A model generated the notes under the pieces. It made no database searches and was not told where the DNA came from. It saw only the letters and a list, made by a program, of their open reading frames with translations. The translations under genes and the position numbers were made by a program. Below, piece after piece: positions 45,842 through 51,535 of a DNA stretch of 64,000 nucleotides (position 1 is its first letter; every line of letters begins with the position of its first letter). The DNA is from Candidatus Eiseniibacteriota bacterium (GTDB lineage: Bacteria > Eisenbacteria > RBG-16-71-46 > JACRLI01): assembly GCA_025351485.1 (NCBI GenBank), contig JANXVU010000164.1, forward strand, positions 438 through 64,437, read 5' to 3'.

Positions 45842-46632
45842 CTACCGCTTTACGTTCCGCGCGATCGCCAGTCCCGCCAGGCCCAGCGCCATGAAGCCAA
45901 GGGTGCGCGGCTCGGGCACCGGGCCCGCCGTGCCTTCGAGGGAAAAAGCCCCGTTGAACGGGCCCTGGTGGGTGATGTCCGTGCCCACCCGCAGCCAGTC
46001 CGGGGAAAGCGCTTCGTTGCGGATCCAGGTCTGCAGGTCGGGAACGAACGGCGTACCGTCCGCGCCGATCGGCTTGGGCGCCGACAGCCAGTAGAATTCG
46101 CCGTTCTGGGTGTCCACTTCGACCTGCGGCACAAAGAAGTAGTGGTCTGAGTCCAGATCGAGCGGGGCGCTGAACGTGAGGTCGAATTCCACCTCGGTGC
46201 CGCGCATGGCCCCCTCGCCGCCCGTGAACTGGTTCGGGATGGGGTTGATTCCGTTCAGCACGCTGTTGTTCGTGGTGAAGAGCGAGGCCAGGGTCTTGGT
46301 CGAGAAAGTCATGTTCGCGTCTGCGGACTGGCGAGAGGCAAAGACCACGTCCGAGGGCGAGTTCACTCGGGTCGGCACGTTTCCCGTGGGCGGGTTGTTC
46401 GAGTCCCCGGGGAACACCCGGTAGATCTCGACTCCCACGTTGAGGATGTCGGAGACGGTCGCGTTTCCGGAGAGAATCCCGGTGAAGGTCGCGTGCTGGA
46501 TGCTGGTGGAACTCGTCAGGACGAAGTCGTCCGCGGCTTCGATCTCCATCTTACCGTTGGAGCCGGCCCGGTCACGCAGATCAGAGCCAACCCCGCGATG
46601 AGGGTCGGGATGGTTCGGCTGGAGCGGAACAC
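45842..46632 (-). pseudogene. PEP-CTERM protein gene with signal peptide out of frame (frameshift or deletion)
   Basis: C-terminus 'VPEPRTLGFMALGLAGLAIARNVKR'. AGGAGG plus GTG at 46632 gives the signal-like MFRSSRTIPTLIAGLALICVTGPA, 83 nt upstream of and out of frame with ORF 46549-45842. Confidence 0.7.
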
Positions 46633-46815
46633 GGGAGCCCTCCTGGGTGCGGATGGATGTGGCCGATCGCCGTGCCCGTCCGCAGTCGCCCCGGTGGCGG
46701 CCGCTTGGGTGGCAGTGGACTCAGGAATGCTTTGTGAATTATACGCCCGCGGATCGCCCTGTCAACGCGCGGGGCAAGGCGCCAAAAATTTCCTGCCCAT
46801 CCGTTCACTTTTTTC

Positions 46816-46844
46816 TTGCCTACTGCACGCCTGTGCAGTAGGCT
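46816..46844 (+). promoter_or_regulatory. lexA promoter containing a putative SOS box TGCAC-GCCT-GTGCA
   Basis: TTGCCT-N17-TAGGCT; a perfect 11-bp inverted repeat (46818-46828/46833-46843) covers the spacer. Confidence 0.8.
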
Positions 46845-46940
46845 TCTTTCCAGAGGCGTTGGACGCGCCCTTGATCCATCTCTGGCCCCGGACGGCCGGG
46901 CATTCTGCGGCCCGGCACCCGGGAGTTTGAAAGAGGAACC

Positions 46941-47570
46941 ATGCTCACAGATCGGGAAAAGGAAATCCTGGGTCTCATCACCCGGCTTACGGAAGAGCGC
47001 GGTTTTCCGCCCACCCTGCGTGAAATCGGAGAGGCCGCGGGGATCAGTTCCACCAACGGCGTCCGCTACTTCCTGGACCGGCTGGAGGCCAAGGGACGGA
47101 TCCGGCGGGGCGACGGGCTTTCTCGGGCGATCGAGCTCATCGATGGGCCGGCGCGGCCATCGGCCACCATCCGGCTGCCCGAGCCCGTGGCCGTGCCCCT
47201 GATCGGGCGGGTCGCGGCGGGTTACCCGGTGCTCTCGGATGAAAACATCGAAGAGCACATCATGGTGGATCCGAGCCTGGCCACCCCGGGGCGCACATTC
47301 GCCCTGCGGGTGCGCGGTGAAAGCATGAAAGACGCCGGCATCCTCGAGGGCGACATGGTGGTGGTGCGGGAGCAGAAAGAGGCCCGCTCGGGAGAGATCG
47401 TGGTGGCCATCGTCAACGGCGAAGCCACGGTCAAGACCTACCGGGTCAAGCGCAACGGCTCCGTGATCCTGGAGCCGGCCAACCCGGACTTCGAGCCCAT
47501 CGAGATTTCCGAAGAGGCGCCGCTGGAAATCCGGGGCAAGGTGATTGCGGTGCTGCGAAAGGTGGGGTGA
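46941..47570 (+). CDS. lexA: SOS repressor LexA
   Basis: 'GFPPTLREIG', Ala-Gly cleavage site in 'GRVAAG', catalytic 'GESM' Ser and 'ATVK' Lys. Confidence 0.96.
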   Translation: MLTDREKEILGLITRLTEERGFPPTLREIGEAAGISSTNGVRYFLDRLEAKGRIRRGDGLSRAIELIDGPARPSATIRLPEPVAVPLIGRVAAGYPVLSDENIEEHIMVDPSLATPGRTFALRVRGESMKDAGILEGDMVVVREQKEARSGEIVVAIVNGEATVKTYRVKRNGSVILEPANPDFEPIEISEEAPLEIRGKVIAVLRKVG

Positions 47571-47935
47571 TGAGCCAGTCCGAACATGACCAGCGAGTGG
47601 ATTACGTGGAGTTTCCGGCCACGGACATCCCTGCCACCAAGCGCTTCTACAACGCCGTGTTCGGCTGGAAGTTCGACGACTATGGCCCCGATTACATCGG
47701 CTTTCACGACGGGCGCCTGGGGGGCGGGTTCTACAAGGCGCCGCATGCCGGCCCGGGCGGGGCGCTGGTGGTGATCTACGCCGCAGACATGGAGGCGACC
47801 CAGGCGCGCGTGGTTCAGGCGGGCGGCAAGATCCTGCGCCCGACGTTTGATTTTCCAGGCGGCCGCAGGTTTCATTTTTCAGACCCGAGCGGAAACGAGC
47901 TCTCTGTCTGGTCGGAGCAGGTCGGTCACAGTTAG
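47570..47935 (+). CDS. VOC/glyoxalase-bleomycin resistance family protein
   Basis: 'DYVEFPATD...FY..VFGWKF.DYGPDY', 'FPGGRRFHF.DPSGNEL'; start overlaps the lexA stop. Confidence 0.9.
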   Translation: MSQSEHDQRVDYVEFPATDIPATKRFYNAVFGWKFDDYGPDYIGFHDGRLGGGFYKAPHAGPGGALVVIYAADMEATQARVVQAGGKILRPTFDFPGGRRFHFSDPSGNELSVWSEQVGHS

Positions 47936-48021
47936 CGGTTCACCGTTCACCCCCTGAAAACCCGTGCGGGTCGATCGGACTGCCTTCGGGCTCGTCCCAT
48001 TGGATTCGTGTTCCCCTCAAC

Positions 48022-48035
48022 TGCACATATGTGCA
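48022..48035 (+). promoter_or_regulatory. Second putative SOS box TGCAC-ATAT-GTGCA
   Basis: Perfect palindrome abutting the AGGAG RBS (48036-48040) of the next gene. Confidence 0.75.
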
Positions 48036-48047
48036 AGGAGTTCCAAT

Positions 48048-48404
48048 ATGTCCGCTCCTATGAGTCATGAGATCGCCACCGAAGCCGGCAGCCGATCCCT
48101 GGGACCGATCCCCCTGGATCGACTGCACCTGGTCGCCCTCGAGCCGGTGGGACACAAGCCGGTGCTGAGCGGCGACGTGGCCGCGGAACTCACCCGCGCG
48201 TTCATGGAAATCGCCGCGCACTCCGGGTACCGGGTCATGTCGGTCTCCATCCTTCCGGATCACGTGAACCTGGTCGTGGAGCTCGGCGGGCTGCACCGCG
48301 CGGAATCGGTCACGCGCGAGCTGCGCGGGCTTTCCAGCCTGCGCCTGATGCAGAGCTTTCCCTCGCTCCGTCTCAAGCTGCGCGCCAACCACCTCTGGAT
48401 CTAG
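48048..48404 (+). CDS. IS200/IS605 TnpA (Y1 HUH)-derived protein lacking catalytic residues
   Basis: 'ILPDHVNLVV...ELRGLSSLRLMQSFPSL...HLW' parallels TnpA 'MPDHVHLL...LKG.SS...FP.L...LW'. HUH reads HVN and the ORF stops before the catalytic Tyr. Confidence 0.7.
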   Translation: MSAPMSHEIATEAGSRSLGPIPLDRLHLVALEPVGHKPVLSGDVAAELTRAFMEIAAHSGYRVMSVSILPDHVNLVVELGGLHRAESVTRELRGLSSLRLMQSFPSLRLKLRANHLWI

Positions 48405-48457
48405 CCCGCCCGCGCGCGGCACTCGAAACATCCAATGGAAATGGGCGGGAGACGGAG

Positions 48458-48712
48458 ATGATCCAGGCTGTCCACGAGCCCATCGAAGTCATCACGGTTT
48501 TCTCCGAAGGCCATGCCCGGCCGCTGCGCTTCAAGTGGCGCAAGCGCGTGGTCAAGGTCGCCAAGGTGACCGGCGAATGGGTTCGCAACGAAGGAGATTC
48601 GCGGGTCCACTACTACTCGGTGCTCGGTGAAACCTCGGACTACTTCGAGATCGCCTACGACGCCCGCAAGGTGCTGTGGACCCTGATGAAAGTCTGGCTG
48701 GATGGAGCGTGA
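48458..48712 (+). CDS. DUF6504-like small protein
   Basis: 'PIEVI..F..G...PLRFKW.....V.....W...G......V......FEI.YD.....W.L'; GGAG RBS. Confidence 0.7.
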   Translation: MIQAVHEPIEVITVFSEGHARPLRFKWRKRVVKVAKVTGEWVRNEGDSRVHYYSVLGETSDYFEIAYDARKVLWTLMKVWLDGA

Positions 48713-48866
48713 GGATGGGATCGAGGGGAGCCACGGCGGAAGTCCCGCCGCCTTATTTCACACCTCACGTTTCCGTCTGAGCCAGTTTCGGGATTGAAGC
48801 CCCGGCGCGGACCGCTTCTGCGCCACGCGCCACCTCCCGCGCCGGGGCCAACTCGTGGGGAGGATC

Positions 48867-50150
48867 ATGGGGTTCTCGCCCTCCCGGGGAGAGGCGCGCC
48901 ATGGGAAGGAGCCGGGCGCGACCCGGATCATATTCCACGTGGACATGGACGCATTCTTCGCCTCGGTGGAGCAATTGTTCAACCCGCACCTGCGCGGGAA
49001 ACCGGTGCTGGTATGCGGCGATCCGGACGGACGCAGCGTGGTGGCGACCGCCTCGTACGAGGCGCGCCCCTACGGCATCCGCTGCGGCATGCCGGTGCGG
49101 GAGGCGCGGCGCCTGTGCCCCCACGCCACGTGCGTGGAAGGAGATCCGGGCAAGTACATCCACATCTCGCTGCAGGTGTTGGACCTGCTCAAGACGTTCA
49201 GCCCTTCGGTGGAGCCGTTTAGCATCGACGAGGCGTTCGTGGAAGTCACCGAACAGATCGAGAAGCGCAGCGAGATGCTGAATCTGGCCAATCGGATCCA
49301 GCGCCGGGTGCGGGCCACCGTGGGGGTGACCGCTTCCATCGGGATCGGACCCAACAAGTTCGTGGCCAAGATGGCCTCCGGGGTGCACAAGCCCGAGGGC
49401 ATGACCTGCTTTTCCACCGCGGACTTCGTCCGGCACTTTGGGCCGCAGCCGGTCGGGGAACTGTGGGGGATTGGAAAAGCCACCTCCGAAATCCTGGGAT
49501 CCCTGGGGCTTCGAACGGTGAATCAACTGGCTGCGGCGCCCCGGGAACTTCTGGCGGGAACCTTCGGTATCGTAGGACCGGGGCTTAAGCTGGTCGCCCA
49601 GGGGTTGGACGAGACCCCGGTGGTTCCGTATCACCAGGCGCCGGATGCCAAGTCCATCGGGCACGAACACACGCTGGAACAGGACGAGTCCGATCCCGAG
49701 ATCCTCGCCGGGCACATGCTGCGCCTCAGCGACATGGTCGCGCGGCGGGCGCGGCTGGACAGCTTCGCCGGCAAGGTGATCTCGCTCAAGCTCCGGAGCT
49801 CGGATTTCCAGACCTTCCAGGCACAGCAGGGGCTGGGGCATCCCACCAGCGATGGCCTGGAGATCTACCGGGTGGCCCGGAGCCTGTTCGAGCGACTTAA
49901 AGATGGCCCCGCGGGAGATTTCCACCGGGGCCGTGTGCAAAAGAGGAAAACTGCCGCTGGACCGATTCGGGCGTTCCGGCTTCTTGGGATATCCCTGGGG
50001 GGACTGGTCCGCCTCGCGCCCGATCCGCAGCGGCTCTTATTTCCGGAAGAGCAGCGCTATCGCGATATGATGTCCGCAGTGGACCGCCTTCGCGGACGCC
50101 TAGGCGAGGGGATCCTCGTGCGGGCCGGCACCATGATTCTCGAACACTGA
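48867..50150 (+). CDS. dinB: Y-family DNA polymerase IV
   Basis: 'HVDMDAFFASVEQ', 'ASYEAR.YG', 'SIDEAF', 'LWGIG', C-terminal clamp-binding-like QRLLF. Alternative start at 48855. Confidence 0.94.
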   Translation: MGFSPSRGEARHGKEPGATRIIFHVDMDAFFASVEQLFNPHLRGKPVLVCGDPDGRSVVATASYEARPYGIRCGMPVREARRLCPHATCVEGDPGKYIHISLQVLDLLKTFSPSVEPFSIDEAFVEVTEQIEKRSEMLNLANRIQRRVRATVGVTASIGIGPNKFVAKMASGVHKPEGMTCFSTADFVRHFGPQPVGELWGIGKATSEILGSLGLRTVNQLAAAPRELLAGTFGIVGPGLKLVAQGLDETPVVPYHQAPDAKSIGHEHTLEQDESDPEILAGHMLRLSDMVARRARLDSFAGKVISLKLRSSDFQTFQAQQGLGHPTSDGLEIYRVARSLFERLKDGPAGDFHRGRVQKRKTAAGPIRAFRLLGISLGGLVRLAPDPQRLLFPEEQRYRDMMSAVDRLRGRLGEGILVRAGTMILEH

Positions 50151-50179: not shown

Positions 50180-50668
50180 ATGGCCAGTAAGTTCCGACCC
50201 GGCGCCGTGGGCGCCATGATGGACGAATACGAGCGCGCCGCAGCGGAGCTCAAGGACCTGGTCCACGGCCTGACCGACGAGCAGTACGCGGCGCTCGCCG
50301 ACCCCGACACCAAGGACGAGGATTGCCGAACCATCCAGACCATCATGCGCCACGTGGTGGGGGCGGGTTACGGCTACGCCAACTACCTGCGGGGCCACTT
50401 CGGGGATCCCCAGGTGACGCACGACAACGTGCTCGCTTCCCGTGAAGACTGCCTGCGGCGCTTCGACGAGATGATGGCCTTCACCGTGCGCACCCTTGAA
50501 AACCGCTGGCAGCTCCCGGACAAGGAAATCGACGGCGCCCAGATCCACGTTCGCTGGGGTCCCGTGTTCAATATCGAGCAGCTCATGGAGCACGCCATCG
50601 TCCACCTGCTCCGGCACCGCCGCCAGATCGAAAAGCTGCTGCTGCGCATGAGCGGGGAACCCGTCTAA
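50180..50668 (+). CDS. DinB/YfiT-like metal-binding four-helix protein (not the polymerase)
   Basis: 'TI..IMRHV' and 'EHAIVHLLRHRRQI' His cluster. Confidence 0.82.
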   Translation: MASKFRPGAVGAMMDEYERAAAELKDLVHGLTDEQYAALADPDTKDEDCRTIQTIMRHVVGAGYGYANYLRGHFGDPQVTHDNVLASREDCLRRFDEMMAFTVRTLENRWQLPDKEIDGAQIHVRWGPVFNIEQLMEHAIVHLLRHRRQIEKLLLRMSGEPV

Positions 50669-50746: not shown

Positions 50747-51535
50747 ATGGGCGAAATTCTAGTTGGAACATCGGGCTACTCGTTTCCGGACTGGATCGGG
50801 CCCTTCTATCCCCCCGAACTCCCGCGGGCGGACCACCTGGCGTTCTACGCCCGCCACTTCAAAGTGGTCGAGGTGAACACCAGCTATTACCGGATTCCAG
50901 CCCCCGGGACCCTGGCCCGAATGGCCAGCCGAACTCCCCCGGACTTCAGGTTCATCCTCAAGCTGCATATGGACATGACTCACAAGGAATCCCGGGAGCC
51001 GGCCCTGTACCGGGAGTTCCAGGAAGCCCTCGAGCCCCTCCGGGAGTCCGGCAAGTTCCATGGCCTGCTGGCCCAGTTTCCGTGGGCATTCCGGGTGAGC
51101 CGGGACTCGGTCCGGCACCTTGCATTCCTCAGGGCTTCCTTTCCCGGAGATTCGCTCCACGTGGAGTTCCGGCGGGCCGAGTGGAACCGGCCCGATTGCT
51201 TCGACTTCTTGGAAGGGCGCGGAATCGGCTATTGTTGTGTGGATGAGCCCTCCCTGCCGGGGCTGATGCCGCCGCACACGGCCGTGACCACCCCGGTCGG
51301 GTACGCGCGGTTTCACGGTCGGAATTCCACCAACTGGTGGGGGCGTGGAGAAGGCGACCGCTACGACTACAACTACAGCCGGAAGGAATTGAGCGAGTGG
51401 CTGGAAAAATTGAAGTCCATGGCCGAAAAGGCGCGAACGACCTATGTGTTCTTCAACAACTGCCACGCCGGGCATGCGGCGGCCAACGCCATGCTCATGA
51501 AGGAACTGCTGGCCCGGGAAGGGCTTCCATTTTGA
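50747..51535 (+). CDS. DUF72 protein
   Basis: 'VGTSGYS..W.G.FYP', 'VEVNTSYY', 'QFP', 'VEFR', 'RFHGR', 'FFNN'. Confidence 0.92.
   Translation: MGEILVGTSGYSFPDWIGPFYPPELPRADHLAFYARHFKVVEVNTSYYRIPAPGTLARMASRTPPDFRFILKLHMDMTHKESREPALYREFQEALEPLRESGKFHGLLAQFPWAFRVSRDSVRHLAFLRASFPGDSLHVEFRRAEWNRPDCFDFLEGRGIGYCCVDEPSLPGLMPPHTAVTTPVGYARFHGRNSTNWWGRGEGDRYDYNYSRKELSEWLEKLKSMAEKARTTYVFFNNCHAGHAAANAMLMKELLAREGLPF

Follow-up and report, generated by a model that had tools for sequence, protein, structure and literature searches.

A tyrosine-less TnpA-like protein encoded beside lexA and a predicted LexA operator in one order of Candidatus Eisenbacteria

The DNA analyzed here is a stretch of 64,000 nucleotides (nt) from a Candidatus Eiseniibacteriota bacterium (NCBI GenBank assembly GCA_025351485.1, contig JANXVU010000164.1, positions 438 to 64,437 of the forward strand), which will be referred to as the window. 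It contains a small open reading frame (ORF) of 118 amino acids (aa) whose product has the Y1/HUH fold of the IS200/IS605 transposase TnpA and lacks the catalytic tyrosine. Within one Candidatus Eisenbacteria order, about 90 of the 98 genomes sampled have a single-copy relative of this Y1-like gene, directly downstream of lexA and behind a predicted LexA operator. The overall explanation that we consider best, with a probability of roughly 0.6, is that a dead TnpA was taken into the SOS response, in which it would act as a non-cleaving binder of DNA structures. Judged from the sequences, the protein is very probably domesticated, SOS-controlled and non-cleaving; that its job is structure-specific DNA binding is a tentative proposal at slightly less than even odds, and a role specifically in the service of DinB/ImuB-C appears unlikely.

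Y1 fold and loss of the catalytic parts

The Y1-like ORF starts with the ATG at 48048 and ends with a TAG stop codon at 48402-48404. Its N-terminal ~25 residues are variable, and residues ~25 to 118 form the core. The Pfam profile Y1_Tnp (PF01797) matched the protein with 38.6 bits (cut-off 23) over profile positions 15-97 of 121; NCBIfam transpos_IS200 gave 45.2 bits, which is under its cut-off of 55. A phmmer search of the PDB sequences retrieved ISDra2 TnpA with an E value of 4.3e-9, with PDHVNLVV of the query opposite PDHVHLLL, that is, with a degenerate H-V-N opposite the H-V-H of the transposase. This alignment stops at the final residues of the window protein (...LW). The nucleophile of ISDra2 TnpA, Y132 (PDB entry 2xo6 is titled as its Y132F mutant), lies on a helix ~20 residues past this end, as read from an alignment via a full-length relative. 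Because the match ends that far before Y132, the window protein is without strand beta4 and the helix carrying the tyrosine. The gap from the stop codon to the next gene is just 53 nt, and thus no frameshifted C-terminus is concealed 3' of the ORF.

An AlphaFold2 (AF2) model based on an 82-row alignment reached a pLDDT of 91.3 and a pTM of 0.80, with pLDDT values of 95-98 at residues 21-118. The top Foldseek match of this model was ISDra2 TnpA (2xma; E 1.8e-8, TM 0.75, rmsd 1.1 Å over 93 columns), and all of the top 29 matches (E ≤ 0.001) were IS200/IS605 TnpA chains; the RAYT structure 4er8 was a far weaker match (E 9.6e-3, TM 0.55). These searches confirmed the product of the ORF as a protein of the Y1/IS200 TnpA fold. 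Prediction of a homodimer from two copies of the window protein (alignment A3) yielded a score of 0.02 against a mark of 0.42, which counts neither for nor against binding. The isoelectric point exceeds 8 in 15 of 17 Y1-like members, which is weak evidence for DNA binding.

An original prediction, made from the letters of the window alone, had described a 118-aa ORF with the Y1 transposase pattern, an HUH motif reduced to H-V-N, an end at HLWI before the position of the catalytic tyrosine, and no frameshift. It had further listed an AGGAG ribosome-binding site abutted by a perfect TGCAC-ATAT-GTGCA palindrome, the lack of an adjacent tnpB, and a DUF6504-like gene and DNA polymerase IV (Pol IV) downstream. 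All of its coordinates were correct when the sequence was rechecked, and each of these features was borne out by the sequence and by the profile and structure comparisons (see also Table 2).

Distribution and three grades of reduction

The organism is known from metagenome bins. Four DNA sequencing runs from one study contain the stretch and may be where it came from; small shares of it occur in seven other runs, and no RNA run was listed as containing it. Its 3.44-Mb genome (98.6% complete) contains one match to PF01797, and the GC content of the Y1-like gene (0.67; 0.85 at third codon positions, GC3) is similar to that of the neighbouring genes. Related genomes carried a Y1-like match in 59 out of 61 cases, nearly always as one copy. 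A phylum-wide sample of 201 genomes was then searched with the family profile, yielding strong matches in three families, f1 (that of the window), f2 and f3, and weak or generic ones elsewhere (Table 1); both counts include the unpublished genome G003 as one matching genome. More than one Y1 match was seen in just three of the 90 matching genomes of the order (G033, G039 and G043). Two canonical genes with both HUH and tyrosine were seen within the order (L125 and L126; …KRYIEN and …TAYVRDQ), neither of which adjoins lexA.

Table 1. Occurrence, catalytic residues and gene order of the Y1-like family.
Family	Genomes with match	E value	Length	HUH motif	Tyr position	C-terminus	Gene order
f1 (window)	2/2	≤ 6e-33	117-158 aa	H-V-N or R-[LV]-D	deleted	ends ..LW[IDE]	lexA-Y1-DUF6504-dinB
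f2	9/9	≤ 6e-33	151-158 aa	R-V-H, Q-I-R or Q-V-R	Arg or Lys 5/5	beta4 and helix kept, no tail motif	lexA-Y1-DUF6504-dinB in part; lexA-Y1-dinB in one genus (L011-L014), with no DUF6504 between and only a distant DUF6504 paralogue elsewhere
f3	79/87	≤ 6e-33	mostly 152-158 aa (range 140-170)	H-x-H kept	Arg 58/58	disordered tail [WFL]-A-x-A-S	DUF6504/dinB detected in 0/81 loci (up to 3.5 kb downstream of Y1 covered)
15 other families	3/103	6e-15 to 2e-7 (weak/generic)

In no member of the family does the catalytic position hold a tyrosine; all 58 full-length f3 forms have arginine in the Y132 column. The f3 proteins otherwise keep the HUH motif, which reads H-V-H, with the first histidine present in 57 of 58 and the second in all 58. 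An invariant histidine follows five residues after the invariant arginine, the glutamine position of Y---Q is variable, and the tail ends in AS (55/58) or AG (3/58). The f3 model (pLDDT 88.9) matched ISDra2 TnpA with E 1.4e-10 and a target-normalised TM of 0.80. Arginine beside an intact HUH motif suggests a site that may still hold phosphate and metal. Since f2 and f1 have lost all of this site, however, a function common to the family cannot depend on it.

The truncation of f1 was kept in all seven other f1-type sequences (53-99% identity; four in alignment A2, P0001, L111, and P0005 with 130 aa, matched to residue 129), with four extra residues in L002, and neither a frameshift nor an internal stop was seen in these seven. 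The HUH motif was lost in each of the six that were read (all but P0005). Conservation of the truncation and of H-V-N among relatives had both been proposed as checks; the truncation and the loss of HUH proved general, but H-V-N itself recurs in only two sequences and R-[VL]-D stands in four. Searches for more genes of the truncated type yielded four proteins with a word index and 77 matches with phmmer against the full library, two of them at E ≤ 1e-10. One of these two, the repeat protein P0006, matched through the low-complexity N-terminus and was rejected as spurious. A metagenome scan gave one real f1-type locus (L111, whose Y1 DNA is identical to that of L003) and one weak match; a scan of genome contigs with the f1 alignment detected no f1-type gene. 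On these comparisons the Y1-like ORF of the window appears to be a functional gene and, within a family of putatively domesticated IS200/IS605 TnpA-like proteins confined to one Candidatus Eisenbacteria order, its product the most reduced form.

Linkage to lexA and history of the operon

The gene lexA was found directly upstream of the Y1-like gene and on the same strand in 20 out of 20 loci of a first set and in 81 out of 81 further loci, in which the lexA start lies 589-778 nt before the Y1 start. The two sets are not independent, as their genomes overlap and they contain 59 distinct proteins. Downstream of Y1 the gene order differs between the families (Table 1). At L007, the sole f3 locus with ORFs listed, Y1 is followed by an unrelated gene on the opposite strand; the f3 genomes have their DUF6504-polymerase pairs elsewhere, with two paralogous pairs in four of five sampled genomes and one in the fifth. 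The constant evolutionary partner of the Y1-like gene is therefore lexA and not DUF6504-dinB. The original prediction had the gene heading a DUF6504-dinB cassette, which is correct for the window, for f1 and for part of f2, but not for f3, where Y1 stands with lexA alone, nor for the f2 genus without DUF6504.

Five genomes of sister orders provided eight lexA loci, four of which read lexA-DUF6504-dinB without Y1 and one lexA-dinB. At one sister-order locus lexA is followed by a Y-family homologue and then by an apparent DnaE2-type polymerase, named from its N-terminal sequence. Because the sister orders have lexA-DUF6504-dinB directly, a known SOS operon appears to have received the Y1 gene by insertion and to have retained it since. 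In the simplest history, the ancestor of the order acquired tnpA between lexA and DUF6504, and the polymerase cassette was later split off in f3.

Three further observations concern these loci. At L004 the Y1 ORF overlaps the DUF6504 start by ~16 nt. Of the polymerases in the paralogous LexA-boxed operons of f3 (L102-L109), one is ~45% and the other ~32% identical to the dinB product of the window. In G043 the extra copies L123 (C6:31500-37500) and L124 (C7:1-5500) each duplicate the whole lexA-Y1 pair together with its two boxes. Both are partly decayed: lexA is broken up across several frames, and one of the Y1 copies has a frameshift.

Predicted LexA operators

The palindrome TGCAC-N4-GTGCA is the predicted LexA operator of Eisenbacteria. 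Within the window it is found upstream of lexA and again at the ribosome-binding site of the Y1-like gene (Table 2). Boxes with at most one mismatch number 2 in the window against 2.2 expected, and the four perfect boxes of the genome are about the chance number by our reckoning; two of these (contigs C46 and C77) are intragenic, were taken as chance and were not accepted as operators. Since the counts match chance, it is where the palindrome stands and how well relatives conserve it that give it weight.

A box of the TGCAC-N4-GT[G/T]CA type was present within 90 nt upstream of the Y1 start in 58 out of 59 loci with distinct proteins, and the remaining locus has a box with a one-base variant, GGCAC. 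The box upstream of lexA is strict in 14 of the 16 loci with lexA upstream sequence and a fourth-base variant (TGCNC) in the other two; in relatives it lies between TTGAC -35 and TATGGT-like -10 elements, the promoters having been read by eye. All eight separate DUF6504-polymerase operons examined have a box ~40-50 nt upstream. TGCNC-N4-GTGCA is reportedly the LexA box of Fibrobacter succinogenes. The proposal of a LexA-type operator in front of the Y1 gene is consistent with these data, and with a conserved operator that is common to the promoter of lexA itself, the Y1-like gene is a predicted member of the SOS (LexA) regulon. In the recA region of this genome (L113, G000:C126), a one-mismatch box, TGCCCATATGTTCA, lies ~190 nt upstream of recA and ~10 nt before TTGAC.

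No box or promoter-like site was found between the Y1 stop and DUF6504 in the window, which places Y1, DUF6504 and probably dinB under the putative control at 48022; the Y1-like gene of f1 is probably co-transcribed with both. A promoter scan found no sigma-70-like site on the plus strand near either box of the window.

Three blocks were conserved in an alignment of 58 distinct f3 intergenic regions: the box, the Shine-Dalgarno sequence, and a hairpin followed by a T-run (GGGAGC…GCTCCCGTTTTT). The hairpin and T-run lie ~25-75 nt upstream of the Y1 start (e.g., L007 and L009), between lexA and the box of Y1. They read as a lexA terminator; they could also be left over from the inserted element or serve as a binding target, and the hairpin recalls the left-end hairpin/terminator of IS200.

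Selection and descent

Selection was estimated as the ratio ω of nonsynonymous to synonymous substitution rates (dN/dS) with the NG86 method. For the 94-codon core of f1, three pairs gave rough ω values of 0.29, 0.46 and 0.49 with Z (dS > dN) of 3.3, 2.5 and 2.0, respectively, as anticipated by the original prediction for a gene under constraint; the N-terminal tail had an ω of ~0.8. In the same genome pairs ω was 0.21-0.29 for lexA, 0.21-0.33 for dinB and 0.12-0.15 for DUF6504. The Y1-like gene of f1 thus appears to be constrained, yet to be the least constrained gene of the operon. The f3 median was 0.30 (1533 pairs with usable dS), and close f2 pairs gave 0.05-0.16.

A quick maximum-likelihood (ML) tree was calculated for 105 Y1 proteins, using every third distinct f3 protein and leaving out P0006 and rows outside 100-200 aa. 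In this tree f1 formed a clade (SH-aLRT 99) on a long stem, as did f2 and f3 together (99). A constrained tree joining f1, f2 and f3 had a log-likelihood 48.6 above that of the free quick tree (p-AU 0.909). A single origin of the three families is therefore the best tree found, though not proven.

Taken together, orthologues exist in most relatives, and they are not intact transposases at scattered loci with a copy in neutral decay; they are single-copy and lexA-linked, with dS above dN. These features, and the absence of the tyrosine from every member, argue for the domesticated, non-cutting TnpA derivative that had been predicted. The Y1-like gene accordingly reads as a conserved, presumably non-catalytic derivative of TnpA, not as a decaying insertion sequence (IS) copy.

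Comparison with known systems

The Y1-like protein shares its fold and sequence family with the IS200/IS605 TnpA proteins (ISDra2 TnpA, 2xma/2xm3; IS608 TnpA), and the full-length relatives keep the beta-alpha-beta-beta-alpha-alpha-beta-alpha layout of TnpA. Unlike TnpA, the family has no catalytic tyrosine (arginine in the full-length forms, the region deleted in the window form), and HUH is lost in two of its three families. Unlike IS200/IS605 elements, the gene is single-copy, fixed beside lexA and preceded by a predicted LexA operator, and it has neither tnpB nor recognised IS ends. According to the retrieved part of PMC6006769, all Y1 proteins classified there have HuH and Y motifs, and LexA and SOS go unmentioned in that part.

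RAYT (TnpA-REP) proteins are likewise single-copy, vertically inherited Y1 derivatives kept by the host, and the relative P0002 is named 'RayT' by one source. RAYTs, however, keep HUH and the tyrosine in a Y---NP context (PMC6006769, same part) and act on REP repeats, whereas the window protein has neither HUH nor tyrosine. The window gene was rejected as a RAYT, since NCBIfam REP_Tyr_transpos gave 19.1 bits with a cut-off of 80, both motifs are absent and 4er8 matched with an E value of only 9.6e-3; the comparison covered the protein and not REP repeats in the genome.

For the polymerase half, the portions of PMC3765255 and PMC6511836 at hand describe operons of a standalone ImuB-C with a PolY/DinB polymerase, often together with lexA, as in lexA-imuB-C-polY of Geobacter sulfurreducens. 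The sister orders of the window's class have the same arrangement (lexA-DUF6504-dinB), whereas the window has a Y1-derived gene and a second predicted LexA operator between lexA and the putative imuB-C; the word 'transposase' occurs in neither of these two portions. The size of the DUF6504 protein (84 aa), its context and a conserved C-terminal tryptophan fit the description of ImuB-C in the accessible text of PMC3765255, and by this analogy we infer that DUF6504 is probably ImuB-C. Because both context and description match, DUF6504-dinB is best regarded as a described relative of ImuABC and not as a new translesion module, and the claim of a module distinct from imuABC was dropped. The statement that the arrangement is undescribed stands for the Y1 half, for which no LexA-linked dead TnpA was found by title or abstract in the literature searched (the supplementary operon tables of PMC6511836 were not covered), but not for the DUF6504-dinB half, which by its context appears to be already in print in those portions. 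Among 14 control genomes PF20114 gave a genome-level match in Caulobacter. Nothing was found for DUF6504 among longer proteins, with no fused ImuB form retrieved; no related solved structure was found, the Atlas giving only other small DUF6504 clusters, and no paper was found by the name DUF6504.

Proposed function and alternatives

In the proposed course of events, an IS200-type tnpA would have settled between lexA and imuB-C(DUF6504)-dinB of an ancestral SOS operon, lost its nucleophilic tyrosine and been inherited as a single copy that immediately follows lexA and has a LexA operator to itself; in f1, the metal site formed by HUH would have gone as well, along with strand beta4 and the C-terminal helix. 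DNA damage would lead to cleavage of LexA and thereby to de-repression of the Y1-like gene. The retained TnpA core might then bind single-stranded DNA (ssDNA) hairpins or fork-like DNA without cutting, and the bound protein might mark or shield damage-exposed ssDNA or help to place other SOS proteins. TnpA transposases grip subterminal ssDNA hairpins, and it is from the fold that binding of ssDNA or hairpins by the Y1-like protein is suggested. TnpAs with affinity for fork-like DNA and the beta-clamp are mentioned in the retrieved part of PMC6006769. The Y1-like protein could thus recognise damage-exposed hairpins or stalled forks, possibly also single-stranded SOS operators or the lexA terminator hairpin, and feed back on LexA or direct translesion polymerases; we regard this more detailed version as possible, with the odds somewhat against it.

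Several points weigh against the explanation as a non-cleaving DNA-structure binder of the SOS response. The link to dinB is not universal, and a role confined to translesion synthesis, such as the accessory factor of the original prediction, becomes less likely as a result. The window protein lacks strand beta4 and the C-terminal helix, with which TnpA closes its sheet and extends to the active site of its partner, and dimerisation and DNA binding by the remaining stump are open to doubt. At the window box no convincing sigma-70 promoter was found, and it may be that this box does no more than block the passage of transcripts begun at the lexA promoter. Constraint on f1 is relaxed, as ω of Y1 exceeds that of lexA, dinB and DUF6504 in the same pairs, and dS obtained with NG86 is rough and unreliable at a GC3 of ~0.85. 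Finally, the free tree search left f1 apart from f2 and f3 on a long branch, and the orthology of f1 rests mainly on synteny.

The invariable neighbourhood of lexA raises the alternative that the Y1-like protein is a partner of LexA, tuning repression or self-cleavage through LexA or the LexA-operator complex. Adjacency to lexA is the sole feature common to all loci (20/20 and 81/81), and the lexA-Y1 pair was duplicated as a unit in one genome. GIL01 gp7 and Acinetobacter DdrR are likewise small proteins encoded beside an SOS repressor, their fold being unrelated to that of the Y1-like protein; the former raises LexA binding and blocks LexA cleavage (PMC4551915) and the latter assists UmuDAb (PMC11332147), as stated in the retrieved parts of these papers. 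The conserved disordered [WFL]-A-x-A-S tail of the full-length forms resembles a docking peptide, but it is missing in f1 and f2, both of which are still linked to lexA. Moreover, the two f3 genes are parted by the hairpin with its T-run and by a separate operator and are thus not simply co-translated partners, and no LexA binding is known for the TnpA fold. We consider such a partnership rather improbable.

With regard to f1, the gene might be a relic whose ORF persists mainly since operator, ribosome-binding site and translation serve the downstream DUF6504-dinB. The f1 gene is the most degraded form, it has the highest ω in the operon and a near-neutral N-terminal tail, and the operator and ribosome-binding site of the three-gene unit stand in front of it. 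A mere relic would nevertheless hardly be expected to keep its stop position in all seven other f1-type sequences, without frameshift or internal stop at 53-99% identity, to show dS above dN in the core (Z 2.0-3.3) or to give so confident a model of the stump (pLDDT 95-98 at residues 21-118), which makes this reading improbable as well.

A third possibility is a transposon decoy, which occupies the end hairpins of IS200/IS605 elements or poisons TnpA dimers during the SOS response. Transposition of these elements goes through ssDNA and is triggered by irradiation in the case of ISDra2 (retrieved part of PMC2806898). A second Y1 match is rare in the order (3 of 90 genomes), the extra copies in G043 belong to the same family and the canonical HUH+Tyr genes seen are just L125 and L126, which speaks for a decoy; on the other hand, with hardly any resident IS200/IS605 to restrain, there is no ready explanation for selection of a decoy across order-level divergence. 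TnpA recognises hairpins in an element-specific manner, and f1 is without the parts that form the active site of the TnpA dimer. This scenario is very improbable. That the ORF is spurious or just an ordinary IS200 copy in decay, as its shortness and the missing HUH and tyrosine might imply, is scarcely credible given a single-copy, order-wide gene that is syntenic with lexA in all loci seen, has a conserved operator and ribosome-binding site, is under purifying selection and has intact frames of 140-170 aa in other families.

If the reading as a dead TnpA in the SOS response is correct, no Y1 family without the tyrosine would have been known before this one, and an SOS factor not recognised until now would be present throughout the order. 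The domesticated Y1 transposases known so far, the RAYTs, keep their chemistry, whereas the present family is without the nucleophile in all lineages and without the metal site in two of them, and would show, as a natural case, a transposase fold put to non-catalytic use. The series of full-length forms with HUH and arginine, full-length forms without HUH, and a truncated core would then show which parts of TnpA the new job requires. The lexA-imuB-C-dinB operon would have absorbed the insertion instead of purging it. The analysis also yields a new candidate for an SOS protein, from a candidate phylum with an unstudied damage response, as well as TGCAC-N4-GTGCA as the predicted LexA operator of this phylum.

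Neighbouring genes in the window

The features from 46800 to 50150 are compiled in Table 2; all genes in this region are on the plus strand.

Table 2. Features of the lexA-Y1-DUF6504-dinB region (positions within the window).
Feature	Position	Strand	Evidence and remarks
Predicted LexA operator 1, TGCACGCCTGTGCA	46824..46837	.	centre of a 26-nt perfect palindrome (46818-46843), ~100 nt upstream of lexA
lexA, 209 aa	46941..47570	+	Pfam LexA_DNA_bind 63.1 bits, Peptidase_S24 115 bits
Glyoxalase/bleomycin-resistance-type (VOC) gene	47567..47935	+	Pfam Glyoxalase 52.1 bits; overlaps the lexA stop codon
Predicted LexA operator 2, TGCACATATGTGCA (perfect TGCAC-ATAT-GTGCA)	48022..48035	.	sequence and conservation in relatives; abuts the Y1 ribosome-binding site
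Ribosome-binding site, AGGAG	48036..48040	+	sequence; 7 nt before the Y1 ATG; CAAGGAG at the same place in L002 and L003
Y1-like gene (Tyr-less, truncated TnpA-like, Y1/HUH fold), 118 aa	48048..48404	+	Pfam, phmmer, AF2, Foldseek and selection analyses
Degenerate HUH motif, H-V-N (CAC-GTG-AAC)	48261..48269	+	sequence and ISDra2 TnpA alignment
DUF6504 gene, 84 aa, probably standalone ImuB-C domain	48458..48712	+	Pfam PF20114 27.3 bits (cut-off 24.2)
Terminator-like GC hairpin with T-rich tail, between DUF6504 and dinB	48734..48750	+	consensus scan only
Y-family DNA polymerase gene, DinB/Pol IV type	48867..50150 (longest ORF from GTG 48855)	+	Pfam, NCBIfam

The ATG of dinB is preceded by GGGAGGATC. 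Its product matched the Pfam families IMS (164.6 bits) and IMS_C (78.7 bits) and NCBIfam PRK02406 (277.9 bits, cut-off 256), and contains DMDAFFASVE and SIDEAF, which we take to be Y-family catalytic motifs. The terminator-like hairpin ahead of it is weak, the scan having returned four sites against 2.5 expected; it could attenuate expression of the polymerase relative to the two small genes. Pfam detected no tnpB domain among the neighbours of the Y1-like gene, and Rfam had no match at E ≤ 1 between 46000 and 51000. An inverted-repeat scan for IS ends showed nothing notable flanking the gene, no dedicated search for subterminal IS hairpins being included.

The VOC gene stands between lexA and Y1 in this genome only and is missing there in L002 and L003. 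Its overlap with the lexA stop codon makes co-transcription of the two genes probable. A VOC homologue occurs just downstream of the Y1-like gene at two f3 loci (L022 and L083), and the VOC gene may be another SOS-linked gene in the order.

Downstream of the polymerase, a gene of the DinB/YfiT family (PF05163/PF12867; unrelated to Pol IV) at 50180-50668 and a DUF72 gene at 50747-51535 follow on the same strand after gaps of 29 and 78 nt, respectively, and may extend the damage-response operon. Upstream of lexA, a perfect sigma-70 consensus (TTGACA-16 nt-TATAAT, 46765-46738) on the minus strand is directed away from lexA and faces a minus-strand ORF (45842-46549), the product of which ends in …PEPRTLGFMALGLAGLAIARNVKR, presumably a PEP-CTERM-like sorting tail.

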